Positions 4,558 through 32,000 of a stretch of DNA of 32,000 nt are shown one piece after another. Source of the stretch: Trichodesmium erythraeum IMS101 (GTDB lineage Bacteria > Cyanobacteriota > Cyanobacteriia > Cyanobacteriales > Microcoleaceae). Position 1 is the stretch's first letter. Each line of letters opens with the position of its first letter. The stretch spans positions 3,840,001-3,872,000 of the forward strand of contig NC_008312.1 of assembly GCF_000014265.1 (NCBI RefSeq), in the 5' to 3' direction. The notes below the pieces were generated by a model that had not been told where the DNA came from, ran no database searches, and saw nothing but the letters and a program-made list of their open reading frames with translations. The translations under genes and the position numbers were made by a program.

Positions 4558-4798
4558 TCTCAAAAGTAAGCAGTTGAATTGAGGCTACAACTTGAAGTTG
4601 AGATATTAGAAAAAAAGTTAACTAACAGAAAATTGGCAAAGCTAAAATGTAGCTACCGATTAGATTTGCCATAACTGAGTCTTTTCAGAGCTGTTCCCAT
4701 CTCGATAATGAGAATAAACTACAACCAGATTTAGTTTGGCGACAACAGCGCTATGTTTTTTATTGGTAAGTTTTAATAATATCAAAGGTAAAATAATT

Positions 4799-7700
4799 AT
4801 GCTTGAGTCTTTTGCAATAGTAGCCAGTGGACAATTAGTAGGTTTTCTCGCTAAAGAAGTTCTGGGAAAATTGGCTAAAGAAGCACTTGAAGATTATGTT
4901 AAAGATTTTTTTAAGCAATGTATTACTGATTTTAAAGATAGGATAAGCAATACCAAAAAAAAGCATTTAGAAAAAGCTACTGCAGAAGCTCTGAAAGAAT
5001 TTTTAGAATTAGTACAGCAAGAGTTAGAAGATGCAGATTTAGAGGAAAATCAGTTACAAGAATATAATCAACCTTTGGAACAGTTTCTCAAAAATAAGTT
5101 AGTTAGAGAAACTTTGGGGAGTGCTTTTGATAATAATAGAAAAATTGTAGATACTAAGATATTAGCTAATATTGCTAAAGACATTGTTCCAGATTTGCCA
5201 CCTAATTTTGACTGGCAAAGAGTCGCAAGAAGATATGGCAAAAAAGTTAAAAATATTAGGAATAATTATGATGAATTACGGAAAATATTAGATTCAGAAA
5301 ACCTCGCTCAAATAGCAAATCAAAATTATAAAATTACACCAGAATTTGACCTCAGAAAATATCAAGAAGGTATCCAAGAACAATATGGAAAACTCAAATT
5401 AGAAAGTTTAGATACCAGTGGTTATGGTTATAATGAACTGAAATTATGGGGAATGTTTATTCCTCAAAATGTTCGAGAATCTCAAGAATTTAGGCCTCAA
5501 TTATATGAGGTTCCTAAAGAATATCTCCAACAATTAAAAGAGACGGGGCAGTTAGAGGCAGAATTTTCTCTAGAACAATTGGAAACTGTCCGACGCAGAT
5601 ATTTAGAACAGCCGGCTCGCTCGGTTTTAGAACTAATAGAAAATACCAACTATAAATATTTAGTTATTCTGGGAGACCCTGGTTCTGGCAAGTCTACCTT
5701 ATTACAATATATCGCTTTGGAATGGGCAGAATTACCTCTGAAAGATTTGCCTTTAAAACCAATTCCTCTATTAATTGAACTACGGACTTATGTGAGAAAT
5801 CATGAGACTAATAAATGCCAAAGTTTTCTAGATTTTCTGGAAAAAGGTAGCGGTTTAAATTGCCATTTTCCTCAAAAAGAACTTCATGCAAAACTACAAA
5901 ATGGTGATGCTATTGTGATGTTTGATGGGTTGGATGAAGTTTTTGAACCTGCTAAAAGAAAGGAAATAATTACTGATATTCATCGGTTTACAAATGATTA
6001 TAAAAATGTCCGGGTTATTGTTACTTCTAGAGTAATTGGTTATCAGCCACAACAACTCCGGGATGCTGAATTTTATCATTTTATGTTGCAAGATTTGGGG
6101 TCGGAACAAGTTGAGGATTTTATTCAACGTTGGCATGATTTAACTTATCAAGATGAGCGGGAAAAAGAGCGGAAAAGGGAAAGGTTGAAACGGGCAATTA
6201 ATGATTCTTCAGCTATTAAGCAATTGTCGGGAAATCCTTTGTTATTAACTATGATGGCTATTTTAAATCGTCATCAAGAATTACCGAGAGATAGGGCAGA
6301 ACTTTATAATCAAGCTTCTCGGGTTTTATTACAGCAATGGGATATGGAAAGGGCTTTAGTTGATGCTAAGATTGACCCGATAACTATTGACTATAAAGAT
6401 AAGCAAGAAATTTTGCGCCGAGTTGCTGATTTTATGCAACAAAATAAAGAAGGTTTGGCTGGTAATTTGATTGATGAAAGCAGCTTAGAAAGTATTATTA
6501 AAAAGTATCTAAAAAGTGTAGATATTAATGATGTGAGATTTGTGGCTAGGGCGTTGATGGAACAGTTGCGGGTTAGGAATTTTATTTTGTGTTTTGTTGG
6601 GGGTGGATATTATGCTTTTGTGCATCGAACTTTTTTAGAATATTTCTGTGCTTGGAGTTTTGTTTGGCAGTTTACGGTAACACAAACTCTGGGAAAAGAT
6701 GGGTTGATAAATGATGTTTTTGGTGGTCATTGGCGGGATGAAAAATGGCATGAAGTATTACGGTTAATTTCTGGGATGATAGATGCTAAGTTTGTGGGAG
6801 ATATTATTAGTTATTTGATGGAACAAGATGGGGAAGAGGAAAAGTTTCAGAATTTATTTTTGGCGGGCAAGTGTTTGTCTGAAGTTAGGAGTAGTCAGGG
6901 TATTGGTGATGTGGAAACTCGGTTATTAAATAGGTTAAAAGATTTGACTGGGTATGACCTTGGTTATTTTTATGAATCTTATGATGAAGATGATGAAGAT
7001 GCAGAGTTAGTTCGTGAAATTCGTACTCAAGCTGTGGAAATAGTGGCTACATCCTGGAGGGATGACTCTTCAACTTATGCTTGGCTTAAAGAAAGGGTTG
7101 TGTCTGATGAAAGTTCGTTTGTGCGACGTGAAGCCGTCGGACAAATAGCTACTGGTTGGAAACACGAGCCCGGAATTTTAGAATTACTCAAACAAAGGGT
7201 TGTGTCTGATGAAAGTGAGGATGTGCGAGCTGAAGCCCTCCGACAAATAGCTACTGGTTGGAAACACGAGCCCGGAATTTTAGAATTACTCAAACAATGG
7301 GTTGTGTCTGATGAAAGTGAGTCTGTGCGAGCTGAAGCCCTCCGACAAATAGCAACTGGTTGGAAACACGAGCCGGGAATTTTAGAATTACTCAAACAAT
7401 GGGTTGTGTCTGATGAAAGTCAGCTTGTGCGAGGTGAAGCCCTCCGACAAATAGCTACTGGTTGGAAACACGAGCCCGGAATTTTTGAATTACTCAAACA
7501 AAGGGTTGTGTCTGATGAAAGTTGGCTTGTGCGAGGTGTAGCCCTCCGACAAATAGCAACTGGTTGGAAACACGAGCCCGGAATTTTAGAATTACTCAAA
7601 CAATGGGTTGTGTCTGATGAAAGTGAGGATGTGCGAGCTGAAGCCCTCCGACAAATAGCTACTGGTTGGAAACACGAGCCCGGAATTTTAGAATTACTCA

Positions 7701-8818
7701 AACAATGGGTTGTGTCTGATGAAAGTCAGCTTGTGCGACGTGAAGCCGTCCGACAAATAGCTACTGGTTGGAAACACGAGCCCGGAATTTTAGATTTACT
7801 CAAACAAAGGGTTGTGTCTGATGAAAGTTGGCAGGTGCGAACTGAAGCCGTCCGACAAATAGCTACTGGTTGGAAACACGAGCCCGGAATTTTAGAATTA
7901 CTCAAACAAAGGGTTGTGTCTGATGAAGACTTGAATGTGCGAACTGAAGCCGTCCGACAAATAGCTACTGGTTGGAAACACGAGCCCGGAATTTTAGAAT
8001 TACTCAAACAAAGGGTTGTGTCTGATGAAAGTCAGCTTGTGCGAACTGAAGCCGTCGGACAAATAGCTACTGGTTGGAAACACGAGCCCGGAATTTTAGA
8101 ATTACTCAAACAAAGGGTTGTGTCTGATGAAAGTGAGGATGTGCGAGCTGAAGCCCTCCGACAAATAGCAACTGGTTGGAAACACGAGCCCGGAATTTTA
8201 GAATTACTCAAACAAAGGGTTGTGTCTGATGAAAGTGTGCGTGTGCGAACTGAAGCCCTCCGACAAATAGCAACTGGTTGGAAACACGAGCCCGGAATTT
8301 TTGAATTACTCAAACAAAGGGTTGTGTCTGATGAAAGTGAGGATGTGCGAACTGAAGCCCTCCGACAAATAGCAACTGGTTGGAAACACGAGCCCGGAAT
8401 TTTAGAATTACTCAAAGAAAGGGTTGTGTCTGATGAAAGTGAGGATGTGCGACGTGAAGCCCTCCGACAAATAGCTACTGGTTGGAAACACGAGCCCGGA
8501 ATTTTTGAATTACTCAAACAAAGGGTTGTGTCTGATGAAAGTTGGGATGTGCGACGTGAGGCAGTCAAACAAATAGCAACTGGTTGGAAACAGGAGCCCG
8601 GAACTTTTGAAATATTTTATGACAACGCCCTCAACGATCCCTTTGAACGTAAACATGAATTTCAAGACAACCCTCGACAAACAGCACTAGAAGCAATAGT
8701 CAAACAATACCCAGACCATCCCCAAACCCTCCCACTATTACAAGACAGAGCCGAAAACGACCCAGACAAAAAACTACAGAAATGGGCAAAAAGGATATTG
8801 CAGCAATATACAACATAG
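4799..8818 (+). CDS. NACHT-domain STAND NTPase with a helical N-terminal module and 15 C-terminal 34-aa HEAT-like repeats (paralog 1)
   Basis: Walker A GDPGSGKST (5672-5698), Walker B IVMFDGLDEV, then SGNPLLLTMMA and FVHRTFLEYF motifs typical of NACHT. The C-terminus is VRxEAxRQIATGWKHEPGILELLKQRVVSDESxx repeated 15 times. The ORF track starts at TTG 4736. I prefer ATG 4799 because the segment AAAGG(T/AT)AAAATAATTATG is shared with the paralog's start at 10766. Confidence 0.85.
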   Translation: MLESFAIVASGQLVGFLAKEVLGKLAKEALEDYVKDFFKQCITDFKDRISNTKKKHLEKATAEALKEFLELVQQELEDADLEENQLQEYNQPLEQFLKNKLVRETLGSAFDNNRKIVDTKILANIAKDIVPDLPPNFDWQRVARRYGKKVKNIRNNYDELRKILDSENLAQIANQNYKITPEFDLRKYQEGIQEQYGKLKLESLDTSGYGYNELKLWGMFIPQNVRESQEFRPQLYEVPKEYLQQLKETGQLEAEFSLEQLETVRRRYLEQPARSVLELIENTNYKYLVILGDPGSGKSTLLQYIALEWAELPLKDLPLKPIPLLIELRTYVRNHETNKCQSFLDFLEKGSGLNCHFPQKELHAKLQNGDAIVMFDGLDEVFEPAKRKEIITDIHRFTNDYKNVRVIVTSRVIGYQPQQLRDAEFYHFMLQDLGSEQVEDFIQRWHDLTYQDEREKERKRERLKRAINDSSAIKQLSGNPLLLTMMAILNRHQELPRDRAELYNQASRVLLQQWDMERALVDAKIDPITIDYKDKQEILRRVADFMQQNKEGLAGNLIDESSLESIIKKYLKSVDINDVRFVARALMEQLRVRNFILCFVGGGYYAFVHRTFLEYFCAWSFVWQFTVTQTLGKDGLINDVFGGHWRDEKWHEVLRLISGMIDAKFVGDIISYLMEQDGEEEKFQNLFLAGKCLSEVRSSQGIGDVETRLLNRLKDLTGYDLGYFYESYDEDDEDAELVREIRTQAVEIVATSWRDDSSTYAWLKERVVSDESSFVRREAVGQIATGWKHEPGILELLKQRVVSDESEDVRAEALRQIATGWKHEPGILELLKQWVVSDESESVRAEALRQIATGWKHEPGILELLKQWVVSDESQLVRGEALRQIATGWKHEPGIFELLKQRVVSDESWLVRGVALRQIATGWKHEPGILELLKQWVVSDESEDVRAEALRQIATGWKHEPGILELLKQWVVSDESQLVRREAVRQIATGWKHEPGILDLLKQRVVSDESWQVRTEAVRQIATGWKHEPGILELLKQRVVSDEDLNVRTEAVRQIATGWKHEPGILELLKQRVVSDESQLVRTEAVGQIATGWKHEPGILELLKQRVVSDESEDVRAEALRQIATGWKHEPGILELLKQRVVSDESVRVRTEALRQIATGWKHEPGIFELLKQRVVSDESEDVRTEALRQIATGWKHEPGILELLKERVVSDESEDVRREALRQIATGWKHEPGIFELLKQRVVSDESWDVRREAVKQIATGWKQEPGTFEIFYDNALNDPFERKHEFQDNPRQTALEAIVKQYPDHPQTLPLLQDRAENDPDKKLQKWAKRILQQYTT
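7078..8610 (+). repeat. In-frame tandem array, 15 x 102 bp (34-aa HEAT-like units) inside paralog 1
   Basis: The core caaatagc(t/a)actggttggaaacacgagcccggaattttagaattactcaaacaa(a/t)gggttgtgtctgatgaaagt recurs every 102 nt. Differences cluster in a few codons. Confidence 0.95.
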
Positions 8819-9055: not shown

Positions 9056-9985
9056 TTAAAAATCCTCAAATAAATGCAACCAACTCAACAAATCTTCCAA
9101 ATTATTAAAATCTAAAGAGTCTTCCCCTAAATTATCCAAATGTGCAACTGATAAACCCTCAATTTGACTAGTTATTGCCTCCGGAACTTCTCCAAAACGC
9201 TTTTTAAGTTGACGTATTATTAATTGCCCTCTCCCTTTTTGTTCGCCTTTTTGTTCCCCTCTTCGCTCTCCTTGTTGTTCCGCATAAGTTATCCGTCCTC
9301 TTTCATCTTGCATTGCTATTCCTCGACGCTCAACTATGTCTAACTCTTCCGCTGTCATGTTAATTTTATTAGCAATATTTAAAGCCTTTTCTATTTCCGA
9401 AACTTCTCTTAAATTCTCCGGTATCTCATCTAAACGGCTAGCACTTTTGAGAAAATAAATCCACTTATCACTTAAAGTATGTAACTCAGACAAATTTTTC
9501 TTAAACTTGGGTAATTCTACAAAAAATAGTTGTAATTCTTGTTCCAGAAACTTAAATTTTTTAGTCTCTTGTTGAAAGACAAACTTATTAATTATATCCT
9601 CATTATTTTCAAACAAAATAAAGTCTGTAATTGTTACCCCTATAGCTGGATTCAGCAAGAGATAATCTTCTCCTGTTTCTAATTGATTTGCATAAGCTTT
9701 AGCTAGGTTATAAGCTACTCGTTTATTAAAACCAGTCATTCTAGCAACCTGCATTTCAATCACTACAATAGAACCATCTACTAAAACAGCTTTGATATCT
9801 AAATATGTATCTTTTAAACTCAGCAATTGACCAGGATTAAAAGGATTAGCAATTGTCAAAGACTGAATAATTTTTTTCCCCCCATAAATTATGGCATTGA
9901 GAAAGCTAATCAAGATATCTTGACTTTGTTGCGAACCGAAGATTTTTTTAAAAGCATAATCTATTTTAGGACTAACAAATTTCAT
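9056..9985 (-). CDS. Rpn-family recombination-promoting nuclease / putative transposase (PD-(D/E)XK fold, DUF4351-like C-terminus)
   Basis: The N-terminus MKFVSPKIDYAFKKIFGSQQSQDILISFLNAI and the core DIKAVLVDGSIVVIEMQV are characteristic of this family. A low-complexity GERRGEQKGEQKG linker follows, then a LIIRQLKKRFGEVPE tail. Confidence 0.8.
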   Translation of the reverse strand: MKFVSPKIDYAFKKIFGSQQSQDILISFLNAIIYGGKKIIQSLTIANPFNPGQLLSLKDTYLDIKAVLVDGSIVVIEMQVARMTGFNKRVAYNLAKAYANQLETGEDYLLLNPAIGVTITDFILFENNEDIINKFVFQQETKKFKFLEQELQLFFVELPKFKKNLSELHTLSDKWIYFLKSASRLDEIPENLREVSEIEKALNIANKINMTAEELDIVERRGIAMQDERGRITYAEQQGERRGEQKGEQKGRGQLIIRQLKKRFGEVPEAITSQIEGLSVAHLDNLGEDSLDFNNLEDLLSWLHLFEDF

Positions 9986-10765: not shown

Positions 10766-13700
10766 ATGATTGAATGGTTAGTTGCTTGGGGAAGTAGTGA
10801 AGCGGTTAAATTTATTGCTCAGGAAGTTGTTGGAAAGTTAGGGAAGGGTGCTGTTGAAGATTATGTTAAGGATTTTTTGAAGCAAAACATCTCTAATGCT
10901 GTTGCCAGAATAGCAAATGGAGAACCTTTAAAAAAAGCTACTAAACAAGCAATTAAAGATTTTGAGAATTTGGGATATAAAGAGTTAAAAAATACTGATT
11001 TGAGTGAAAGTAAATTAAAGGAATATGATAAATATTTCAAGTCTTTTATTCAAGAGGGGTCTGTTTTAGAGGTTTTAATTAGTGCCTTCGATAATGATGT
11101 GAAAATTTTAGATATTAATAAATTGGCTACTGCCTGGAACAAAATAAATCCACCTTTACCAGATAACTTTGACTGGGATTTTTTGGCAAAGCAACATCAG
11201 AGAAGTGTTAAAGATATTATCCGGAGTTTCCCAGAATTACGGATAATATTAGATTCTAAAAACCTCGATCAAATAGCAAATCAAAATTATAAAATTACAC
11301 CAGAATTTGACCTCAGAAAATATCAAGAAGGTATCCAAGAACAATATGGAAATCTCAAACTAGAAAGTTTAGATACCAGTGGTTATGGTTATAATGAACT
11401 GAAATTATGGGGAATGTTTATTCCTCAAAATGTTCGAGAATCTCAAGAATTTAGGCCTCAATTATATGAGGTTCCTAAAGAATATCTCCAACAATTAAAA
11501 GAGACGGGGCAGTTAGAGGCAGAATTTTCTCCAGAACAATTGGAAACTGTCCGACGCAGATATTTAGAACAGCCGGTTCGCTCGGTTTTAGAACTAATAG
11601 AAAATACCAACTATAAATATTTAGTTATTCTGGGAGACCCTGGTTCTGGCAAGTCTACCTTATTACAATATATCGCTTTGGAATGGGCAGAATTACCTCT
11701 GAAAGATTTGCCTTTAAAACCAATTCCTCTATTAATTGAACTACGGACTTATGTGAGAAATCATGAGACTAATAACTGCCAAAATTTTCTAGATTTTCTC
11801 GAAAAAGGTAGCGGTTTAAATTGCCATTTTCCTCAAAAAGAACTTCATGCAAAATTACAAAATGGTGATGCTATTGTGATGTTTGATGGATTAGATGAAG
11901 TTTTTGAACCTGCTAAAAGAAAAGAAATAATTACTGATATTCATCGGTTTACAAATGATTATAAAAATGTCCGGGTTATTGTTACTTCTAGAGTAATTGG
12001 TTATCAGCCACAACAACTCCGGGATGCTGAATTTTATCATTTTATGTTGCAAGATTTGGGGTCGGAACAAGTTGATAATTTTATTCAACTTTGGCATGAT
12101 TTAACTTATCAAGATGAGGGGGAAAAAGAGCGGAAAAGGGAAAGGTTGAAACGGGCAATTAATGATTCTTCAGCTATTAAGCAGTTGTCGGGAAATCCTT
12201 TGTTATTAACTATGATGGCTATTTTAAATCGTCATCAAGAATTACCGAGAGATAGGGCAGAACTTTATAATCAAGCTTCTCGGGTTTTATTACAGCAATG
12301 GGATATGGAAAGGGCTTTAGTTGATGCTAAGATTGACCCGATAACTATTGACTATAAAGATAAGCAAGAAATTTTGCGCCGAGTTGCTGATTTTATGCAA
12401 CAAAATAAAGAGGGTTTGGCTGGTAATTTGATTGATGAAAGCAGCTTAGAAAATATTATTAAAGATTATCTAAAAAGTGTAGATATTAATGATGTGAGAG
12501 TTGTGGCTAGGGCGTTGATGGAACAGTTGCGGGTTCGTAATTTTATTTTGTGTTTTGTTGGGGGTGGATATTATGCTTTTGTGCATCGAACTTTTTTAGA
12601 ATATTTCTGTGCTTGGAGTTTTGTTTGGCAGTTTACGGTAACACAAACTCTGGGAAAAGATGGGTTGATAAATGATGTTTTTGGTGGTCATTGGCGGGAT
12701 GAAAAATGGCATGAGGTATTACGGTTAATTTCTGGGATGATAGATGCTAAGTTTGTGGGAGATATTATTAGTTATTTGATGGAACAAGATGGGGAAGAGG
12801 AAAAGTTTCAGAATTTATTTTTGGCGGGCAAGTGTTTGTCTGAAGTTAGGAGTAGTCAGGGTATTGATGATGTGGAAAATCGGTTATTAAATAGGTTAAA
12901 AGAGTTGACTGGGTATGACCTTGGTTATTTTTATCAACCATTGTACTTAAGCTTTAGTTCTATTTCTAGGGAAATTTATAGGAAAAATTTAGACTTAGTT
13001 CGTGAAATTCGTACTCAAGCTGTGGAAATAGTGGCTACAACCTGGAGGGACGACCCTTCAACTTATGCTTGGCTCAAACAAAGGGTTGTGTCTGATGAAG
13101 ACTCGGATGTGCGACGTGAAGCCGTCCGACAAATAGCTACTGGTTGGAAACACGAGCCGGGAATTTTAGAATTACTCAAACAATGGGTTGTGTCTGATGA
13201 AGACTCGGATGTGCGACGTGAAGCCCTCCGACAAATAGCTACTGGTTGGAAACACGAGCCCGGAATTTTAGAATTACTCAAACAATGGGTTGTGTCTGAT
13301 GAAAGTGAGTATGTGCGAACTGAAGCCGTCCGACAAATAGCTACTGGTTGGAAACACGAGCCCGGAATTTTAGAATTACTCAAACAATGGGTTGTGTCTG
13401 ATGAAAGTGAGGATGTGCGAGGTGAAGCCCTCGGACAAATAGCAACTGGTTGGAAACACGAGCCGGGAATTTTAGAATTACTCAAACAATGGGTTGTGTC
13501 TGATGAAAATTGGCATGTGCGAACTGAAGCCCTCCGACAAATAGTAACTGGTTGGAAACACGAGCCCGGAATTTTAGAACTACTCAAACAATGGGTTGTG
13601 TCTGATGAAAGTGAGCTTGTGCGAGGTGAAGCCCTCCGACAAATAGCTACTGGTTGGAAACACGAGCCGGGAATTTTAGATTTACTCAAACAAAGGGTTG

Positions 13701-14815
13701 TGTCTGATGAAAGTGAGTATGTGCGAACTGAAGCCGTCGGACAAATAGCTACTGGTTGGAAACACGAGCCCGGAATTTTAGAATTACTCAAACAAAGGGT
13801 TGTGTCTGATGATAGTGAGTCTGTGCGAGCTGAAGCCCTCCGACAAATAGCTACTGGTTGGAAACACGAGCCCGGAATTTTAGAATTACTCAAACAAAGG
13901 GTTGTGTCTGATGATAGTGAGTCTGTGCGAGCTGAAGCCCTCCGACAAATAGCTACTGGTTGGAAACACGAGCCCGGAATTTTAGAATTACTCAAACAAA
14001 GGGTTGTGTCTGATGATAGTGAGTCTGTGCGAGCTGAAGCCCTCCGACAAATAGCTACTGGTTGGAAACACGAGCCCGGAATTTTAGAATTACTCAAACA
14101 AAGGGTTGTGTCTGATGATAGTGAGGATGTGCGACGTGAAGCCGTCCGACAAATAGCTACTGGTTGGAAACACGAGCCCGGAATTTTAGAATTACTCAAA
14201 CAATGGGTTGTGTCTGATGAAAGTGAGTATGTGCGACGTGAAGCCCTCGGACAAATAGCTACTGGTTGGAAACACGAGCCCGGAATTTTAGAATTACTCA
14301 AACAATGGGTTGTGTCTGATGAAAGTGAGTATGTGCGACGTGAAGCCCTCCGACAAATAGCTACTGGTTGGAAACACGAGCCCGGAATTTTTGAATTACT
14401 CAAACAAAGGGTTGTGTCTCATGAAAGTTCGTCTGTGCGAACTGAAGCCGTCCGACAAATAGCTACTGGTTGGAAACACGAGCCCGGAATTTTAGAATTA
14501 CTCAAACAAAAGGTTGTGTCTGATGAAAGTTGGGATGTGCGACGTGAGGCAGTCAAACAAATAGCAACTGGTTGGAAACAGGAGCCGGGAACTTTTGAAA
14601 TATTTTATGACAACGCCCTCAACGATCCCTTTGAACGTATACATGAAATTCAAGACAACCCTCGACAAACAGCACTAGAAGCAATAGTCAAACAATACCC
14701 AGACCATCCCCAAACCCTCCCACTATTACAAGACAGAGCCGAAAACGACCCAGACGAACAACTACAGAATTGGGCAAAAAGGAAATTGCGATCGCTAAAA
14801 AATAACCAGCGCTAG
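10766..14815 (+). CDS. NACHT-domain STAND NTPase with a helical N-terminal module and 15 C-terminal 34-aa HEAT-like repeats (paralog 2)
   Basis: 1349-aa ORF. From about residue 170 onward it is nearly identical to paralog 1 and has the same Walker A/B and NACHT motifs. The first ~170 aa are only distantly similar. Confidence 0.88.
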   Translation: MIEWLVAWGSSEAVKFIAQEVVGKLGKGAVEDYVKDFLKQNISNAVARIANGEPLKKATKQAIKDFENLGYKELKNTDLSESKLKEYDKYFKSFIQEGSVLEVLISAFDNDVKILDINKLATAWNKINPPLPDNFDWDFLAKQHQRSVKDIIRSFPELRIILDSKNLDQIANQNYKITPEFDLRKYQEGIQEQYGNLKLESLDTSGYGYNELKLWGMFIPQNVRESQEFRPQLYEVPKEYLQQLKETGQLEAEFSPEQLETVRRRYLEQPVRSVLELIENTNYKYLVILGDPGSGKSTLLQYIALEWAELPLKDLPLKPIPLLIELRTYVRNHETNNCQNFLDFLEKGSGLNCHFPQKELHAKLQNGDAIVMFDGLDEVFEPAKRKEIITDIHRFTNDYKNVRVIVTSRVIGYQPQQLRDAEFYHFMLQDLGSEQVDNFIQLWHDLTYQDEGEKERKRERLKRAINDSSAIKQLSGNPLLLTMMAILNRHQELPRDRAELYNQASRVLLQQWDMERALVDAKIDPITIDYKDKQEILRRVADFMQQNKEGLAGNLIDESSLENIIKDYLKSVDINDVRVVARALMEQLRVRNFILCFVGGGYYAFVHRTFLEYFCAWSFVWQFTVTQTLGKDGLINDVFGGHWRDEKWHEVLRLISGMIDAKFVGDIISYLMEQDGEEEKFQNLFLAGKCLSEVRSSQGIDDVENRLLNRLKELTGYDLGYFYQPLYLSFSSISREIYRKNLDLVREIRTQAVEIVATTWRDDPSTYAWLKQRVVSDEDSDVRREAVRQIATGWKHEPGILELLKQWVVSDEDSDVRREALRQIATGWKHEPGILELLKQWVVSDESEYVRTEAVRQIATGWKHEPGILELLKQWVVSDESEDVRGEALGQIATGWKHEPGILELLKQWVVSDENWHVRTEALRQIVTGWKHEPGILELLKQWVVSDESELVRGEALRQIATGWKHEPGILDLLKQRVVSDESEYVRTEAVGQIATGWKHEPGILELLKQRVVSDDSESVRAEALRQIATGWKHEPGILELLKQRVVSDDSESVRAEALRQIATGWKHEPGILELLKQRVVSDDSESVRAEALRQIATGWKHEPGILELLKQRVVSDDSEDVRREAVRQIATGWKHEPGILELLKQWVVSDESEYVRREALGQIATGWKHEPGILELLKQWVVSDESEYVRREALRQIATGWKHEPGIFELLKQRVVSHESSSVRTEAVRQIATGWKHEPGILELLKQKVVSDESWDVRREAVKQIATGWKQEPGTFEIFYDNALNDPFERIHEIQDNPRQTALEAIVKQYPDHPQTLPLLQDRAENDPDEQLQNWAKRKLRSLKNNQR
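13065..14598 (+). repeat. In-frame tandem array, 15 x 102 bp (34-aa HEAT-like units) inside paralog 2
   Basis: Same 102-nt unit as in paralog 1. Units at 13797-13898, 13899-14000 and 14001-14102 are identical base for base. Confidence 0.95.
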
Positions 14816-19189: not shown

Positions 19190-19936
19190 CTAGCGCAACG
19201 CAAAATCAGAACGCAACCTCAATTCTAAATCATCCTCTGGATAAATAACAACTACCTCCCCTTCTTCCCGACCCAATAACACTCCACCTAAAGCACCTAA
19301 ACCCGCACCTATTAATATCCTTTCCGTAGCCAGAACCCGATCTCCAAGAACCGCAGATAATAAAGCAGCAGCACCACCACCCACAGCAGCACCCTTCAAG
19401 ATATCCCCAGCGCTTGCACCTTTTGTTATTTCTTCAGTCTCAGTAATTACTTGAGAAACAGCATTAATAGGAAACCTACGGCGATCGCCAATAATTAATT
19501 GTTCAGCAAAAAACTGAGTCCCATTTGAAACAGGTCGTAGTTCACCTTCTATCTCACCACCAAAAGGTATAACCACTCTTCCTTGAGCATCCCTAATATC
19601 TTTAGTCACCCTCAACCTTAACCTCATCGACTCATCTGGAGTTATCACAACCTTTTCTGCTTCCTTATATTCTATAGGAATAAGCTTTCCTGCTCGTATC
19701 CTTGCTACAGACAACGGCCCTCTTGGGTTACCTGGATATCGTCTGTGTTGGTAGCCTGGATATCGTCTTTGTTGGTAGCCTGGGTATTGTCTTTGTTGGT
19801 AGCCTGGGTATTGTCTTGGTCCGTTAAATTGAGCCATAGCTTGTTTTGACATTAAACCAGGAGTTGCTGTAGCTAATGTCATGCCTAAAGTCAACAACAA
19901 AGACGTTCCAGAATGCCAGTTTTTTGAATTAACCAT
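19190..19936 (-). CDS. Hypothetical exported protein with (Q/R)YPGYQQR tandem repeats and a C-terminal glycine-zipper segment
   Basis: Signal-peptide-like N-terminus (SLLLTLGMTLATATPGLMSKQAMAQ). Four 8-aa (24-nt) repeats. C-terminal GAAVGGGAAALLSAVLG...GAGLGALGGVLLG. I recognise no family. Confidence 0.6.
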   Translation of the reverse strand: MVNSKNWHSGTSLLLTLGMTLATATPGLMSKQAMAQFNGPRQYPGYQQRQYPGYQQRRYPGYQHRRYPGNPRGPLSVARIRAGKLIPIEYKEAEKVVITPDESMRLRLRVTKDIRDAQGRVVIPFGGEIEGELRPVSNGTQFFAEQLIIGDRRRFPINAVSQVITETEEITKGASAGDILKGAAVGGGAAALLSAVLGDRVLATERILIGAGLGALGGVLLGREEGEVVVIYPEDDLELRLRSDFALR

Positions 19937-22712: not shown

Positions 22713-23540
22713 ATGGAGTAAAAAAAACACTAAGTTACTCAAATATAACTAATCTTGAGGGCATAGTTATAAAAAATCACCAATTCATAGCATAATTCAG
22801 AAGTTTGGAGTTAAATTCTTGCTATGACTATTTGAGAGGTGCGAGAATGTCCTAACAAAAATAATGGCTTTTATCATGAGAGTATTATTATTATAATACT
22901 ACAGTTATATAATCAAATTTTTCATTGCGTTGTTTATTTGCCCTTAACAGCTAAAGAAGATGTTAATCATGATTGCTCTATAATCAAATTATCTGATATA
23001 ATCCAAAACAAAAAAGTGAGCGATCGCACTATTTATAGAAGCAAGATGGCATAGCATATAGCCACTGGAGTTGTTTCTTTCATGATACTTTCCCAGTTCT
23101 AGTAATTAACTTCAAATACTTGACATCTATATATTTTACCCCTTTTTTTACCATTTTTTTTCCCAAAGTCCTGCTCAACCACATATTATTATCAAACAGT
23201 AATTCTAATAAGATAAACATTAATTTTAGTACAAAAATGTAAGTACCTCAGCAAAATTATTTACCTATTTTAATTATCTATTCTTTTTATAAGGCCAATC
23301 ATTCAGCTTGTATAAACGTGTAATTAATTTTGCAAGGCCACTTACTACTTAAAGACAAAAAAGAAATAAGTAAGTAATCAAACATTAACCCATTAACAAG
23401 AAATACCTAAAAGACTAATAATAGTGTAGAAATAACAAAATTCCTTGACAATTATCTTGAATATCTAGTCTTTCTTAGAGAAAGACTTGAGGAATTTTTG
23501 GAGATGTCTAATAGTCAGTGCTAGATATAACTTTTTTTCC

Positions 23541-26499: not shown

Positions 26500-28455
26500 A
26501 TGAAAACAGAAGTCAGAAACATTAATACAGAAATATTAGAACATAATTTACAACGAAACTGGCAAGATTTAAAAAAATCTAATGATGTTTGTGAAATTAA
26601 ATGCGACTTAAAGGTAGGAACATTATTGGTTATTTTTCAACATCCAGCAAATGTAGTGATAGATAAGCAAAAAACAATTGCAGAGTTAAAAACTCTAGTT
26701 CAAAAACAGGAGTTAGAATATATAGAAAAAGTAGGTATTTGCTTGAATATAATAGGTCATACATATCCTTATGCTTATCATTCATTTTTTACCAAGGATA
26801 CCTCAGAAGAATCTATGTTCACTTTTCTGCCCAAATGGGTAGATAGAAATATAGATTCTGAAATAAAAATTACACCAGAATTACTAGATTCCTTAGATAA
26901 TCCATTTAGTTTAAAAGATTTAGAAGCAATATCTATGAGACTAGAATCTGAGGGTATGTCTGATACAAATCCTCATCTAATCAATCAGCATATCTCTCAG
27001 GATAAAAGTCAAAATTCAGAAATTAAAATCACTTCAAAAATACTGGATGATTTAGATAATCCTTTTGATATGGAAGGATTAGATTTATCCCCAAAAAAAA
27101 TTAATAGAAAAACTAGGAATTATGTAGAAAAAACATCGCCTATAATCAAAGAATCAACTATTAATTTAGCTGCCTTTTCTCAAGTAGAATTGATTAGCGC
27201 TAGTTTAAGTTTAGCAATTTTAATAGGCTGTTTTTTTGCAATAACTCAACCCTGTGTGATTGGAAAATGTATGATAATATCAACGGCAAAAGAATTAAAT
27301 CAACAATCACTAGAAACAATTAAAAATGTCAAAAATTCTTTGGCTCCAAAGTGGGCACAAGAAAATTTAGAAACAGCAATTAAAAATTTAGAAAAGATTC
27401 CATTTTGGTCAATACATTACTTAGAATCACAAAATTTAAAGTCTACTTACAAAACAGAAAATGAGCATTTGGAAACAATTAGACAAGCTTTGCGTAATGG
27501 TGCACAAGCAGCTCAAAAAAGCAAAGGTTTACCACTACCAATAGAAGAATGGATAGAAATTCAATCACTTTGGCAAGAAGCGATCGCTCTATTAGAAAAA
27601 GTACCAGAAGATAGTAGAGCTTATCCTTTTGCTAAAAATAAACTACAGCAATATCGCAAGTATTTAGTTGCTATTAAAGGAAGATTAACTAGTGAAGAAG
27701 AAGCTAATCAAAAGTTAATAGCGGCGAAAAAATTAGCTCAGTTAGCAGAGACCAGAGAGGTAATAGCTCAATTTCCTGAAAGCTGGAAAAGTGTACATTC
27801 AAACTGGAAAGATGCCTTAGATAAAGTATCTAAGATTCCTCAACAAACAACTGCTTATTTAAAAGCCAAAAATTTACTTTCTCAGTATAAACAAAAACTT
27901 CAGCAAGCAGAGGAACGTAGAATCGTAGAAGAAATTGGTCAAGAGGCTTATAATCAAGCTATTAGTTACTCTAAACAAGCTGAAGTGTTTGAGGCAAAAG
28001 ATAATTGGAGAGATGCTGCAAAATATTGGCAAAAAGCTCTAAATTATGCTGAAGACATACCAACTAATTCAAGTTATTTTATTTCAGCAAAACCTCTGAT
28101 TAAATCTTATGATACTTTGCTAAAAGTAGCACAATCAAACCAAAGGTTATTAGATACTTTAGCAAAAGCTAATCAGGACTTAAATAAGACTTGCAAGGGA
28201 AAACAAAAAATTTGTCAATATAGTGTTACTAAGGATTTAATTACTGTACGTTTGACTTTTGATTATGTAGATAAAATCAAAAAAACAGCTAAAGCAGTGA
28301 AAAATAGTAAAGACAAAAAGAGTCGTACTGAACTCGAAAAACATTTGAAAACTTTAGAGGTTGCTTTAAAGGCTATTAGTAATAATTCTAAGATTCCTTT
28401 AGAACTTTATAACCCACAAGGTTTAAAAATTGCTTCTCATTTTCCCAATAGTTAA
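26500..28455 (+). CDS. Hypothetical membrane-anchored protein with internal repeats
   Basis: 651-aa ORF. It has a duplicated SEIKIT(P/S)xxLDxLDNPF segment and one hydrophobic helix (LISASLSLAILIGCFFAITQP). A helical C-terminal part carries four W..A...L..(I/V)P......Y..(A/S)..L modules. I recognise no family. Confidence 0.6.
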   Translation: MKTEVRNINTEILEHNLQRNWQDLKKSNDVCEIKCDLKVGTLLVIFQHPANVVIDKQKTIAELKTLVQKQELEYIEKVGICLNIIGHTYPYAYHSFFTKDTSEESMFTFLPKWVDRNIDSEIKITPELLDSLDNPFSLKDLEAISMRLESEGMSDTNPHLINQHISQDKSQNSEIKITSKILDDLDNPFDMEGLDLSPKKINRKTRNYVEKTSPIIKESTINLAAFSQVELISASLSLAILIGCFFAITQPCVIGKCMIISTAKELNQQSLETIKNVKNSLAPKWAQENLETAIKNLEKIPFWSIHYLESQNLKSTYKTENEHLETIRQALRNGAQAAQKSKGLPLPIEEWIEIQSLWQEAIALLEKVPEDSRAYPFAKNKLQQYRKYLVAIKGRLTSEEEANQKLIAAKKLAQLAETREVIAQFPESWKSVHSNWKDALDKVSKIPQQTTAYLKAKNLLSQYKQKLQQAEERRIVEEIGQEAYNQAISYSKQAEVFEAKDNWRDAAKYWQKALNYAEDIPTNSSYFISAKPLIKSYDTLLKVAQSNQRLLDTLAKANQDLNKTCKGKQKICQYSVTKDLITVRLTFDYVDKIKKTAKAVKNSKDKKSRTELEKHLKTLEVALKAISNNSKIPLELYNPQGLKIASHFPNS

Positions 28456-28985
28456 AGGAAGAAAAATATCTGAGTATAGTTTTTATAGTGCTTCTCAAAT
28501 TTAGGTTGTGGAGTCTGTATTTAACTGAGATATAAGGTTGATAATTTCCGAGCCAAACTTATTACTATTTAAACCTATATTTTACACTATAAATGTAGCA
28601 TGAAAATATAATTCAAAAGTCATGCATTCAAGGCACCCTCTTGATCTTCTCCACACCCCCATGGGGTAAGTTACCTCAATTTGAAAAAAATTATAGTGGT
28701 CAATAGGATTTAAGGATTCACTAAGTATTTGTACTTAATATATTCCTAAAAACTTTACTCCTGATCAAGGTAAATGAAAATAATTTTTATAGTATAAATA
28801 TTTAACCAAGTTACAGATTTTATACTGATTTTTATGTTACAAATTGAGTTGCAGAATGTGAGTTTCAAAATTGAAAACTCCAGAGTTTTAGTTAGGGATA
28901 CTGGCTCTAGACCACTATGAGTCAGAGAATTCCTGAGCACTCAACTTCATTTTCTGAAGCTCAAAAAAAACTGCGGTATTTTGCC

Positions 28986-29014
28986 TTGCATTCACACAAA
29001 AATTTTGATATCAT
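28986..29014 (+). promoter_or_regulatory. Promoter-like element in repeat unit 1 (TTGCAT-N17-TGaTATCAT)
   Basis: -35-like TTGCAT at 28986-28991, a 17-nt spacer, and an extended -10 TG-a-TATCAT at 29006-29014. Motif match only. Confidence 0.3.
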
Positions 29015-29286
29015 AAAATTACAGTGGAGTAATTCGGGCATTTGCATGATTTTTTCTTCAACCCACTTTTAAGCAACTTAAGAGATATTACTAAAAAACT
29101 TACTAAAAAACTTACTAAAAAAATAGAATAGGTGCAAAAGCCGAACTAACCTGGGTATTGCCAATTAAGAACTTCTGTGGATATATAGGTAATAAGTGAT
29201 AAATCATGATTCAATTATGAGTCAGAGAATTCCTAAGCACTCAACTTCATTTTCTGAAGCTCAAAAAAAAACCGCGGCATTTTCCC

Positions 29287-29315
29287 TTGCATTCACACAA
29301 AAATTTTGATATCAT
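29287..29315 (+). promoter_or_regulatory. Promoter-like element in repeat unit 2
   Basis: Same TTGCAT-N17-TGaTATCAT motif, conserved exactly. Confidence 0.3.
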
Positions 29316-29576
29316 AAAATTAGAGTGGAGTAACTCGGGCATTTGCATGATTTTTTCTTCAACCCACTTTTAAGCAACTTAAGAGATATTACTAAAAAAC
29401 TTACTAAAAAAATAGAATAGGTGCAAAAACCGAACTAACCTGGGTATTGCCAATTAAGAACTTCTGAATGGCTATATAGGTAATAAGTGATAAATCATGA
29501 TTCAATTATGAGTCAGAGAATTCCTGAGCACTCACCTTCATTTTCTGAAGCTTAAAAAAAACCGCGGCATTTTCCC

Positions 29577-29605
29577 TTGCATTCACACAAAAATTTTGAT
29601 ATCAT
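29577..29605 (+). promoter_or_regulatory. Promoter-like element in repeat unit 3
   Basis: Same TTGCAT-N17-TGaTATCAT motif, conserved exactly. Confidence 0.3.
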
Positions 29606-29799
29606 AAAATTAGAGTGGAGTAACTCGGGCATTTGCATGATTTTTTCTTCAACCCACTTTTAAGCAACTTAAGAGATATTACTAAAAAACTTACTAAAAA
29701 AATAGAATAGGTGCAAAAACCGAACTAACCTGGGTATTGCCAATTAAGAACTTCTGAATGGCTATATAGGTAATAAGTGATAAATCATGATTCAATTAT

Positions 29800-31175
29800 C
29801 GGGACTTTAGTGAAAAAATAGTAAAAAAAAGGGTATAATGTATACCTGATATGTATTTTACGTTAATTACTGGCCTGGGAAAAGTTTGATGAAAGAAACA
29901 ACTTCAGTGGCCATGCCCTCTTGTTTCCATCGATGGTGCGATCGCTTTAACAATGTCTTTAAAACAAAAGCCCAAAAAACAGGGTTTAGGGAATATATAG
30001 GAGGATTACTCTTGAGAAAGCGATCGAAAAAACTTGTCTCAAATTGCCAACAACACTGTAGGTCACACGTACCACAAATTACGGCATTTTCTAGTTCGAG
30101 CAAATTGGTCTGTAGATGCTGTGAATGAGCGTCGTCTTCAAGTAATGTGGGAACGTCGCCAAACAAAACCTTCTCGATCCTATTGCTTTAATTATAGACG
30201 ATTCAGGCCACAGAAAAAGTGGTAATTTTACTGCAGGAGTAGGGCGGCAATATATAGGAGAAATAGGAAAAACAGATAATGGTGTAGTCGTGGTGACAAC
30301 TCATCTTTATGATGGAGTTAAAAGTCTACCTTTAGACATAGCTTTGTATCAGAAAGCTGATTCTTTTCCAAAAGGAAAAAAAGACCCAGAATTTGTCAAG
30401 AAACCAGACGAGTGCAATGTCTCTAGTAGATCAATGTTTGTCCAGAGGACACCAACCAGAAATTGTGTTAATTGAAATTTGGCTATGGTAACAATACATC
30501 ATTCTTAAATCAACTAGAGAAAAGAAGTTTAACTTATATAGGAGGATTAGCTAAAAATCGAAAAGTCATCATTAAAAAACAAGATGACATTAAAGAGGAA
30601 ATTAGATTAGACAAGCTGGCAGAAAGTATACCTCAGAAAGCTTTCAACTTAGTTCAACTAAGTACAAAAAATGCTAGAGAAGTTTGGGTAGCTACATTAG
30701 AAGTAGAAATATCTAGGATGTCAGGTCAAAAAACTATAGCTATCGTTATGAATGCTAAAAGTTTTTCTGAGGCCACTGATATTAACTATTATATCACTAA
30801 TAGAGAAGACAAATATGTAACTCCTGAGTGGATATATTCTACTTATTCTCAAAGAAATTGGGTGGAAGTTTTCTACAGGGAAGCCAAAGGATGGTTAGGA
30901 TTAAGAGAATATCAAGTCAGAGATAAAATCAGCCTTAAAAGGCATTTTATTTTAGTATTTTGTGCTTATACATTTATTATCTGGCATCAGTTAACAGGAG
31001 GTATAAGAAGGCGTTGGGCTAACAAACCATTAAATACGTTTACTGATACTTTAGAAGCATTTCGTACCGCAATATCTTATCGTTTTGTTGAGTGGTTAGA
31101 TGAAAACATCGACGTATTTACCGCTCATAAAGAGAGTTTAGGGTTTGTTTGGGCTTGAAATTTGCTAAAGTCCCG
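29800..31175 (+). mobile_element. IS701-family-like insertion sequence (1376 bp) with a decayed transposase
   Basis: Terminal inverted repeats CGGGACTTTAG at 29800-29810 and, reverse-complemented, at 31165-31175. Flanking 4-bp direct repeat TTAT at 29796-29799 and 31176-31179. Removing the element and one TTAT restores the normal unit junction caattatgagtc. Confidence 0.85.
29886..31158 (+). pseudogene. IS701-like DDE transposase, disrupted by at least three to four frameshifts
   Basis: The reading continues across four frames: ...FREYIGGLL / SQIANNTVGHTYHKLRHFLVRANWSVDAVNERRLQVM / ALIIDDSGHRKSGNFTAGVGRQYIGEIGKTDNGVVVVTTHLYDG / SLVDQCLSRGHQPEIVLI / GYGNNTSFLNQLEKRSLTYIGGLAKNRKV...NWVEVFYREAKGWLGLREYQVR. 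These motifs are typical of IS701/IS4-like DDE enzymes. Confidence 0.8.
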
Positions 31176-31423
31176 TTATGAGTCAGAGAATTCCTGAGCA
31201 CTCACCTTCATTTTCTGAAGCTCAAAAAAAACCGCGGCATTTTCCCTTGCATTCACACAAAAATTTTGATATCATAAAATTAGAGTGGAGTAACTCGGGC
31301 GTTTGTATGATTTTTTCTTCAACCCACTTTTAAGCAACTTAAGAGATATTACTAAAAAACTTACTAAAAAAATAGAATAGGTGCAAAAACCGAACTAACC
31401 TGGGTATTGCCAATTAAGAACTT
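31176..31423. repeat. Fourth unit of the ~290-bp tandem repeat, 3'-truncated
   Basis: It resumes with ttatgagtcagagaattcctgagc right after the IS. It matches units 2/3 up to ccaattaagaactt, then diverges at 31424. Confidence 0.9.
31247..31275 (+). promoter_or_regulatory. Promoter-like element in repeat unit 4
   Basis: Same TTGCAT-N17-TGaTATCAT motif. Confidence 0.3.
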
Positions 31424-32000
31424 TAGATTGTTATTATCAAACTTTATCTACTTGGATAGATAAATTTTTAGAAGGAGGATTAAAGAATTTAGTAGAAACA
31501 ATCATTCACCAAATATCATCAAGATTAAATATAGAGCAGAAACAGGAATTAAAAACAATGATACTGAAAGAATTACCCAGAGATTATGGGGTAGATATAA
31601 ACAAATGGAGCTGGTAAAATTATTAGTAATGTTATTGAATTAAGATGGGTAGTAAAACTGAAAACAACAAGAATATATGAAATTTTAAATTAATTAAATT
31701 TATCAGCTCAAAAAGCCCATAGGAATTATGCTAAATTTATTTTAAGTCTAAAAAAATTGGCATCTAAAAAAGAGAAGGAAAAAATAGTATTTTTTGATGA
31801 ATTTGCTGTTTATGAGCGCCCAAGCATTTTTTACGGATGGGCAAAAAAAAATACAGGTCCTGAAGTAACCAGTAATGAGAAGAGAGGTAGAAATAAATTG
31901 AATGGAATGATTTCAGTTAATGCCTTTACAGCTCAAGAGTATTTAAAATTAAAATAAAAATCTAAAATAGAGGAAGTTTCGGATTACTTTTTACAATGAG
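31424..32000 (+). mobile_element. IS630/Tc1-mariner-like transposase remnant (degraded; runs to the window edge)
   Basis: Translated fragments lie in shifting frames with stops: TWIDKFLEGGLKNLVE, IEQKQELKTMILKELPRDYGVDINKWS, RIYEILN.LNLSAQKAHRNYAK and IVFFDEFAVYERPSIFYGWAKKNTGPEV. They follow the usual order of IS630 HTH and DDE motifs. Confidence 0.65.

Follow-up and report, generated by a model that had tools for sequence, protein, structure and literature searches.

A lineage-restricted array of 290-bp non-coding tandem units in Trichodesmium erythraeum IMS101, probably a young and neutral duplication

Tandem arrays in filamentous cyanobacteria

VNTR and macrosatellite loci are intergenic tandem duplications that are kept by unequal recombination. 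About 40% of the Trichodesmium genome is non-coding, with much of that portion being transcribed, and a tandem array with no known function is the source of the most abundant RNA of the genus. In T. erythraeum IMS101, intergenic positions make up 26.7% of the start sites (PMC4143802; PMC6596454), and an array near Tery_0080 (ncf103766-ncf109467) accounts for 44.7% of primary reads; it consists of seven tandem repeats, every one of which has a start site of its own and gives rise to an RNA of ~260 nt (PMC4143802). Transcription of such arrays is thus already known in this organism. A further precedent is NsiR1, an RNA of about 60 nt encoded upstream of hetF in Anabaena and at least 19 other heterocystous cyanobacteria, the expression of which is heterocyst-specific and dependent on both NtcA and HetR, and each repeat of which has a terminator (Ionescu et al. 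2010, cited in PMC6596454).

Here we describe an array of 290-bp units located downstream of Tery_2505, within a 32,000-nt stretch of the T. erythraeum IMS101 genome (the ‘window’). As in the type reported by Pfreundt 2014, these are tandem repeats in IMS101 non-coding DNA; the two arrays have in common their genome, a head-to-tail arrangement, adjoining transposase debris and near-identical repeats, and ncf103766-ncf109467 was likewise without similarity to other genomes when described. However, the units of that array are 736-973 bp in length and carry a duplicate of the 3′ portion of the gene next to them, whereas those described here span 290 bp and do not duplicate any part of an adjacent gene, as judged by blastn and tblastx against the whole window; these same searches, which returned the units themselves and no other copy, led us to reject an origin from neighbouring genes. 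In each unit of the published array, moreover, a start site has been mapped, and the ~260-nt RNA is confirmed by Northern blot.

With NsiR1, the comparison initially drawn for this locus, the array shares direct repeats, a promoter-like element in each of them, and a filamentous, diazotrophic cyanobacterial host. Unlike NsiR1, the array belongs to a non-heterocystous host and does not lie upstream of hetF, and its conservation is confined to a single subclade. Nor does the unit match any RNA family by sequence or structure (cmscan, Rfam 15), and there is no sign of an NtcA/HetR-dependent promoter, with NtcA (GTA-N8-TAC) and DIF (TCCGGA) motifs being absent from all units, the sole GTA-N8-TAC falling inside an insertion sequence; each repeat has a promoter-like motif but not the intrinsic terminator. 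Like bacterial VNTR or macrosatellite loci, the array combines high unit identity with apparent differences in copy number, nested microsatellite and homopolymer variation, and absence from sister lineages, although a 290-bp unit sits at the long end of the typical range and the copy-number differences come from short-read assemblies.

Architecture and lineage distribution of the array

The array is flanked by Tery_2505 and an IS630-family transposase pseudogene, adjoining the latter, and is located within DNA that is specific to T. erythraeum. Two genes upstream is a member of the GntR family, no + strand gene lies downstream, and a tRNA/tmRNA scan returned nothing. Running from the stop codon of Tery_2505 to the first unit is an AT-rich spacer (28456-28916, + strand), whose identity on sequence comparison is 100% among IMS101-like contigs and falls to 96% in the lineage represented by MAG_R01 and St19_bin2; its conservation in other Trichodesmium species is restricted to the first ~74 nt, such that L006, L007, L029 and L030 match at nt 3-73 only (78-81%).

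Tandem Repeats Finder reports a period of 290 at 28916-29799 (3.0 copies, 95% matches, score 1560), and with copy alignment confirms the four head-to-tail units first noticed in the sequence; three of them are full-length (28917-29799; 290-300 bp each) and the fourth measures 246 bp, all on the + strand. Unit 1 (28917-29216; 300 bp) is the most diverged and contains three copies, one extra, of the 12-bp TTACTAAAAAAC; it is followed by unit 2 (29217-29507; 291 bp) and by unit 3 (29508-29799; 290-292 bp), whose last four nucleotides, TTAT, form an insertion sequence target site. Unit 4 (31178-31423) ends, by alignment, at AAGAACTT, where the conserved downstream flank starts. The 95-99% identity originally claimed stands for units 2 and 4 (98.6% and 98.8% to unit 3 by BLAST) but not for unit 1 (92.4%, with gaps). 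Within the unit, the 12-bp TTACTAAAAAAC behaves as a microsatellite (29088-29122, + strand), present in 2 to 4 copies by unit and strain, and an A-run varies from A7 to A9 among unit copies.

An imperfect palindrome, TGATTCA-ATTA-TGAGTCA, is formed at every unit junction (alignment-fold pairs 2-10 with 303-312), and is intact at about 29201-29218 and 29492-29509; its left half, seen in the sequence, the alignment fold and as a local hairpin, is found at 29782-29799 and has no strand assigned. The units are contiguous, in contrast to the 24-48 bp repeats and unique spacers of a CRISPR array, and abut head to tail with neither the terminal inverted repeats nor the target duplications of a MITE or IS-derived repeat.

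Units 3 and 4 are separated by an IS4-like element of 1376 bp (29800-31175, + strand) with a frameshifted transposase. That an insertion sequence splits the array had been proposed from the outset, and is borne out by its 11-bp inverted ends (CGGGACTTTAG), the duplication of its 4-bp target (TTAT, 29796-29799 and 31176-31179), and a 228-aa ORF that matches DDE_Tnp_1 and DDE_Tnp_1_4, with an identical ORF being annotated at many IMS101 loci. Its position falls in the loop of the palindrome at the unit junction. T. erythraeum GBRTRLIN201 (L001, L021) carries this insertion too, and L012-L014 lack it. Independent assemblies, of GBRTRLIN201 and several metagenome contigs, carry the same array; it is not an assembly artefact. 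Beyond unit 4, the downstream flank (31424-32000, + strand) comprises the IS630-family pseudogene (..LDCYYQTLSTWIDKFLEGGLKNLVE..), recognised by translation and a weak DDE_3 match (a 66-aa fragment at 31757-31957), which continues past the end of the window; after the last unit, this flank is 99.7-99.8% identical in L012-L014 and 88.6% identical in L018 and L020.

Full units are restricted to contigs that match IMS101 at 99.8-100% over the upstream flank. In MAG_R01, itself T. erythraeum at 97.3% ANI (PMC9189399), and in St19_bin2, both with an upstream flank 96% identical to that of IMS101, there remain only GAGCACTCACC and a 33-nt piece of the unit; positions ~33-220, promoter motif included, are absent. 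No unit at all was found in the T. nobis-like MAG_R03 or in another Trichodesmium species. Between intact flanks there is one unit in L012, two in each of L013 and L014, and 3.9 in IMS101 and GBRTRLIN201, where the insertion sequence is present as well; these differences depend upon short-read assemblies (L012-L014), which may collapse repeats. The L012 unit is chimeric between units 1 and 4, a structure consistent with either a collapse or a real deletion. Exact-pattern scans with three parts of the unit, including a degenerate pattern covering the sister-lineage variant, gave no match in 185,579 species-representative genomes, JGI metagenomes or IMG/VR, the genome scans not returning the window itself and probably not extending to the remainder of the IMS101 chromosome. 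A BLAST search against phages and plasmids was empty, and the competing possibility, voiced with the original prediction, that the unit belongs to a mobile element with many copies gained nothing from any collection searched.

Synthesising these findings, we consider it probable that the array arose by a recent tandem duplication of non-coding DNA confined to one lineage, that is to say that it is a VNTR or macrosatellite, and a neutral one; it displays the head-to-tail units, high identity and confinement to a young lineage that such loci have. The intergenic region has been inflated by mobile-element debris. In other Trichodesmium species, 260-360 bp separate the Tery_2505 orthologue from a convergent 312/314-aa gene; in T. 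erythraeum the spacer has gained both the IS630-family element, since reduced to a pseudogene, and some 0.8 kb of AT-rich sequence, a 290-bp piece of which is present as head-to-tail copies in the IMS101-like subclade, with the IS4-like element having landed later, at the junction of units 3 and 4. We speculate that unequal recombination or replication slippage amplified the 290-bp piece, perhaps aided by the imperfect palindrome at each junction, and that gene conversion may hold units 2 to 4 near-identical; such an array would need no function. Judged from the sequences, variation in the A-run and the 12-mer, the substitutions that follow the -10 element (see below), and two substitutions in L002 that disrupt the sole decent local hairpin all look neutral. 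We also note that a 33-nt block, invariant and retained in every unit, counts against neutral duplication.

Promoter-like motifs and the case for a multicopy RNA

This block brings together a -35-like hexamer and a TG-extended -10 element (TGaTATCAT), and is unchanged in about 18 unit copies. In unit 1 (28986-29019, + strand) the motif reads TTGCAT, 14 nt, TGa-TATCAT, and overlaps TTCACA-17-TAAAAT; its counterparts are found at 29287-29320, 29577-29610 and 31247-31280 (+ strand), such that the identical promoter-like motif foreseen for each unit is present in all four, with predicted start sites near 29021, 29322, 29612 and 31282, each of which would shift some 5 nt downstream were TAAAAT the -10 element. 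A consensus scan gives 10/12 matches in each unit. Saying this, the region contains 14 promoter-like sites against 14.8 expected in shuffles, and the invariance of the motif across copies is not exceptional.

The motif invites an alternative, namely that the array is a multicopy non-coding RNA locus in which each unit is transcribed from the TGaTATCAT promoter, the product acting in trans or as a sponge with its dosage set by copy number, as likened to NsiR1 in the Nostocales and to the ncf104733 array of IMS101. We regard this as unlikely. In its favour are a promoter-like motif that is invariant in all copies, units that do not code for protein (see below), and the seven-repeat array of the same genome, which is transcribed extremely strongly (PMC4143802) and makes transcription of the 290-bp array plausible; moreover, a short product could have been missed, since the published libraries left out RNAs shorter than 300 nt. 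Against it, hexamers of this kind occur at chance frequency in the AT-rich DNA of the region, the promoter-bearing part is missing from the sister T. erythraeum lineage and from all other species, and substitutions are concentrated just after the -10 element, making the first ~25 nt past the predicted start the most variable part of the unit.

Searches for the attributes of an RNA gene point the same way. NsiR1 is counted among the Rfam families; cmscan of the unit against all 4227 families of Rfam 15 gave nothing at the gathering score, and at E<=10 only chance matches (snoR12 and SAM-II; E 1.8-6.3). For one unit taken in transcript phase, folding z-scores were -0.57 and -0.77 on the + strand and +0.61 on the - strand, with no fold signal above that of shuffled sequence on either strand or in sub-segments, and no local hairpin better than shuffles. 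No terminator-like site was found in any unit, the best hairpin before a U-run (about -1.4 kcal/mol) being no better than shuffles; the UCGGGC-AUUU-GCAUGA hairpin that precedes U6 was considered as a terminator and rejected as too weak. In an alignment fold of 10 units, none of the 67 predicted pairs was compensatory (covariation term -0.08), although with a divergence among copies of 0-8% the missing covariation does not weigh strongly against an RNA. Rfam searches, covariation and conserved synteny had been suggested as checks on the idea of an array analogous to a small-RNA locus, an idea that thus draws no positive support from Rfam, folding, terminators, covariation or motif frequency; the promoter-bearing part of the unit does not extend even to the nearest sister lineage.

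Of the 6080 start sites reported in PMC4143802, the 23 strongest, listed in its Table 1, do not include the locus, and no mention of Tery_2504-2507 was found in searchable literature. One entry of that table, ncr3647195, is described as ‘in between repeats’; we rejected it as the array locus on position because Tery_2505, extrapolating from Tery_2341 at 3.616 Mb, is estimated to lie near 3.87 Mb.

Stated in its fullest form, the array would be a second, undescribed T. erythraeum multicopy non-coding RNA locus, with a TG-extended -10 promoter to each unit, a read-through or unconventionally terminated RNA, and a role as a dosage-dependent regulator or sponge, having arisen in a single subspecies. 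This we think quite unlikely; if true, it would exemplify how tandem amplification can give rise to an RNA gene family de novo. Returning to a neutral duplication, the sigma-70-like motif of each unit may still fire, and since no terminator follows it, firing would be expected to yield heterogeneous, read-through non-coding transcripts and not a defined small RNA.

Coding remnants, DNA-level sites and growth of the intergenic region

We have also considered whether the units are the duplicated remnant of a once-functional sequence, either a decayed small protein gene or mobile-element cargo that arrived with IS630, with an ATG-led ORF as the trace of that gene. Each unit does start with such an ORF, 51 codons long in units 1 and 4, and all three units of contig L002 have one of 65 codons, since two A-to-C changes have there converted the pair of downstream TAA stops to TCA; the array also lies directly upstream of the IS630 pseudogene, in DNA specific to T. 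erythraeum. However, as originally described, the ORF is frameshifted by an A9 run in unit 2 and closed by a TAA stop in unit 3, here placed at codon 16. Across 17 unit copies there are 9 non-synonymous, 3 nonsense and 5 synonymous changes, and six copies are frameshifted, a neutral pattern of substitution. The longest version of the ORF (65 aa), used as the query, found no homologue among 5.8 billion protein clusters, with no cluster sharing even three 5-residue words, and an exact look-up of seven unit ORFs in the protein collection found none called as a gene on either strand. The frameshifts, nonsense changes, 9:5 ratio and want of a homologue argue against a protein-coding repeat or small-protein gene, and the initial view of the units as non-coding is upheld. 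Neither is the unit homologous to the intact IS630 5′ region in L018, and its derivation from the 5′ end of that element was rejected; together with the failure to find another copy in the phage, plasmid, viral, metagenome and genome collections searched, this leaves a remnant of either kind very unlikely.

Least probable of all, to the point of being hard to credit, is an element acting at the level of DNA, whether the repeats bind a protein, such as the nearby GntR-family regulator, or form a structural array of curved DNA. Each unit contains, besides several A-tracts, a perfect palindrome of 10 bp, AATCATGATT, which the L018 relic retains; however, by our estimate chance would give about one palindrome of this kind in 290 bp of AT-rich DNA, the A-tracts are not phased, there is no + strand gene downstream to regulate, and close lineages that retain the GntR gene lack the array.

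Finally, on the reading that we favour, of a young tandem duplication that is probably neutral, the locus mainly documents how an intergenic region of about 300 bp came to exceed 5 kb by way of IS insertion, tandem amplification and further IS insertion, which fits the known expansion of the T. erythraeum genome and will not surprise a specialist. Should the 290-bp array prove to be transcribed unit by unit, it would offer a young, copy-number-variable case in which to ask how such arrays arise and whether they act.

Structure of the array and of its interruption

Tandem Repeats Finder places one array at 28916-29799 (period 290, 3.0 copies, 95% matches, score 1560), downstream of the gene for Tery_2505 of T. 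erythraeum IMS101, a 651-aa protein matched residue for residue at 26500-28455, which assigns the window to IMS101 or an almost identical strain. Sequence reading and alignment resolve it into unit 1 (28917-29216; 300 bp, with one additional copy of the 12-bp TTACTAAAAAAC), unit 2 (29217-29507) and unit 3 (29508-29799), with a 246-bp unit 4 (31178-31423) beyond an insertion sequence; relative to unit 3, identity is 98.6% for unit 2, 98.8% for unit 4 and, with gaps, 92.4% for unit 1. The array is real and non-coding, and the original prediction described it correctly in all particulars.

The block separating units 3 and 4 (29800-31175; 1376 bp) is a bona fide IS4-like insertion sequence: its inverted ends measure 11 bp (CGGGACTTTAG), and a 4-bp stretch of the target, TTAT, is duplicated. 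The transposase is split over several frames, the largest piece of which matches DDE_Tnp_1 and DDE_Tnp_1_4 and is annotated at many IMS101 loci. Until the element inserted, the 3.9 units formed one uninterrupted run of ~1.13 kb. Every unit junction carries an imperfect palindrome, TGATTCA-ATTA-TGAGTCA (29201-29218; 29492-29509; 29782-29799 with 31176-31186), and the element sits exactly in the loop of one of these, with TTAT duplicated; this suggests either a preference of the element for ‘hairpin’ or palindromic targets, or a role of the palindrome in promoting the duplication. A 102-nt inverted copy (79% matching) of the element's left-end region (29813-29914) also lies at 23058-23159, a solo IS-end relic in the gap between two ORFs, one ending at 22742 and the other starting at 23541; the related T. 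erythraeum contigs all have it.

Other repeats occur in the window. Two ~1350-aa paralogues on the forward strand (4736-8818 and 10766-14815), each with an NNH2 N-terminal domain, a NACHT NTPase domain and HEAT repeats, contain ~15 tandem 102-bp (34-aa) repeats apiece (7088-8611 and 13073-14599); these are 93% identical both within and between the two genes, which is indicative of strong concerted evolution, or of a very recent expansion, in these STAND NTPases. Between them, on the reverse strand (9056-9985), lies a gene for a PD-(D/E)XK nuclease-family transposase-like protein (PDDEXK_2 and DUF4351). There is also a perfect heptanucleotide microsatellite, CAATCTC x 8.9 (1550-1611; 100% matches), and a 24-bp repeat x 3.6 (19731-19817; 95% matches) that forms an in-frame 8-aa repeat within a 248-aa ORF (19190-19936, reverse strand), whose product has no Pfam family on record.

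Coding potential and tests for an RNA gene

The ATG-led ORF of the unit runs for 51 intact codons in units 1 and 4, but a frameshift disrupts it in unit 2 and a stop codon in unit 3. Among 17 copies of the unit, drawn from IMS101 and eight further assemblies, A7 or A9 runs frameshift it in six and nonsense changes interrupt it in three, with the other substitutions (9 non-synonymous vs 5 synonymous) close to neutral expectation. An exact look-up of seven unit ORFs from both strands returned no called protein among ~15 billion sequences, and the longest version had no relative among 5.8 billion protein clusters. Judged on these sequence comparisons the units are non-coding, as had been proposed.

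In one metagenomic contig (ENA ERZ23497920, LEEM17-1 scaffold_353; L002:12418-13287), both TTAAG motifs read TTCAG in all three units, turning two TAA stops into TCA in the ATG frame and opening a 65-codon ORF in every unit; they also disrupt two pairs at the centre of the unit's only respectable local hairpin. Concerted evolution, selection or a systematic sequencing/assembly effect are all possible causes of these parallel changes.

The original prediction held that the array, with a promoter-like motif in each unit, may be a multicopy small-RNA or regulatory locus, and suggested a search of Rfam. No family in Rfam 15 matched the window at gathering thresholds, and relaxation to E<=10 yielded chance matches only. 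Folding z-scores for one unit in the predicted transcript phase were -0.57 and -0.77 on the forward strand and +0.61 on the reverse, and sub-segments folded no better than shuffles. A consensus scan found no terminator-like site in any unit; the sole U-run with a preceding hairpin has a stem of ~-1.4 kcal/mol. An alignment fold of ten units gave no compensatory change in 67 pairs and a covariation term of -0.08 kcal/mol, a weak negative given that the copies differ by only 0-8%.

Each unit does carry a promoter-like TTCACA-17-TAAAAT (10/12 matches), overlapping TTGCAT-14-TGa-TATCAT, with 14 such sites across the region vs 14.8 expected in shuffles. The TAAAAT version varies among ~18 unit copies (T to C in contigs L012 and L013, A to G in L016 and L017). 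By contrast, none of these copies shows a change in the TG-extended TATCAT or its surrounding 33-nt block; a promoter-like motif is indeed kept in every unit. By our estimate, ~24 sites per 290 bp vary and the unit has other invariant stretches of 35-40 nt, which makes the invariance of this block unexceptional. Variation within the unit peaks in the ~25 nt directly downstream of the -10, which would form the 5' end of the putative RNA.

Distribution among Trichodesmium genomes

Orthologous loci were gathered through relatives of Tery_2505 and of a 66-aa ORF downstream of the array. Units are carried by contigs in which the 461-nt spacer upstream matches that of IMS101 at 99.8-100% identity. 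GBRTRLIN201 agrees with IMS101 in its three units, insertion sequence and unit 4, and L002 has three units followed by the start of the insertion sequence; between intact flanks, the short-read metagenome assemblies L013 and L014 have two units each and L012 one, all three without the insertion sequence. Copy-number polymorphism is likely rather than proven, as the lone L012 unit combines parts of units 1 and 4, a chimera to be expected from assembler collapse or a real unequal crossover alike. Beyond unit 4, from 31424 on, all IMS101-like contigs share a conserved downstream flank; this is a pseudogene of an IS630-family transposase and does not represent a fresh truncating insertion.

In the sister lineage (MAG_R01 and St19_bin2) the upstream flank is 96% identical to IMS101; MAG_R01 is itself T. 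erythraeum, with 97.3% ANI to IMS101 (PMC9189399). Both retain just GAGCACTCACC, joined to a piece of 33 nt (ACTAACCTGGGCATTGCCAATTAAGAACTTCTG), plus a junction-segment relic 130 nt further on, with unit positions ~33-220, including the promoter-like block, missing. In the T. nobis-like MAG_R03 and in a further Trichodesmium species, a convergent 314-aa gene lies only 263-358 bp after the Tery_2505 orthologue, and just the first ~74 nt of spacer are shared with IMS101. The spacer measures 263-358 bp in other Trichodesmium (L007:2065-2328, L029:7956-8314), ~2 kb in the MAG_R01 type and >5 kb in IMS101. These flank and unit comparisons place the array within DNA confined to T. erythraeum, and the intact amplified unit within the IMS101-like subclade.

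Within the window the unit matches only itself. Three separate stretches of the unit, one of them made degenerate so as to include the sister-lineage variant, served as exact patterns and had no match in 185,579 species-representative genomes, JGI metagenomes or IMG/VR; BLAST against phage and plasmid collections was likewise empty. The species-representative scans did not return the window's own sequence (exact 22- and 24-mers), placing the IMS101 locus, and perhaps its whole chromosome, outside their coverage, so further copies elsewhere in IMS101 are possible. A multicopy mobile element containing the unit, which the original prediction had considered, did not appear in these collections, whose coverage probably excludes the rest of IMS101.

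Origin of the array

We consider neutral, VNTR-like duplication the probable explanation. An IS630-family element and a stretch of AT-rich DNA enlarged a short ancestral spacer in T. erythraeum, and a 290-bp piece of the AT-rich DNA occurs head to tail. We infer that unequal recombination or slippage amplified this piece, that gene conversion homogenised units 2-4, and that a right-hand deletion fused the last unit to the IS630 pseudogene; such an array would need no function. Should the unit promoter fire, the absence of a terminator predicts mixed-length read-through transcripts, whether into the unit that follows, the insertion sequence or the IS630 pseudogene.

A unit-wise transcribed ncRNA array with a role seems unlikely to us. 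Trichodesmium fixes nitrogen but forms no heterocysts, so that the proposed parallel with NsiR1, the tandem sRNA array of heterocystous cyanobacteria, is not directly applicable; the array departs from that family on every feature tested, and NtcA boxes and DIF motifs are absent from all units. The closest known case is in the same genome, near Tery_0080: an array of >6 kb with seven 736-973-bp repeats, a start site mapped in each, and a ~260-nt RNA that makes up 44.7% of all primary reads and has no assigned function, in a genome where 26.7% of start sites are intergenic (PMC4143802; PMC6596454). By this analogy the small-RNA hypothesis is a fair one; Rfam, folding, terminator and covariation tests, however, lend it no positive computational support, and the unit's extremely recent origin and restricted distribution weigh against it. 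The array of 290-bp units is not among the 23 start sites in the main text of PMC4143802, and Tery_2504-2507 have no mention in the searchable literature.

That the units are the duplicated remnant of a lost gene or element we regard as improbable, and that they form a DNA-level binding array as more improbable still.

The array adds to the repeat arrays for which this genome is known, and its main use is as a dated example of stepwise non-coding inflation, through IS630 insertion, tandem amplification and IS4-like insertion.
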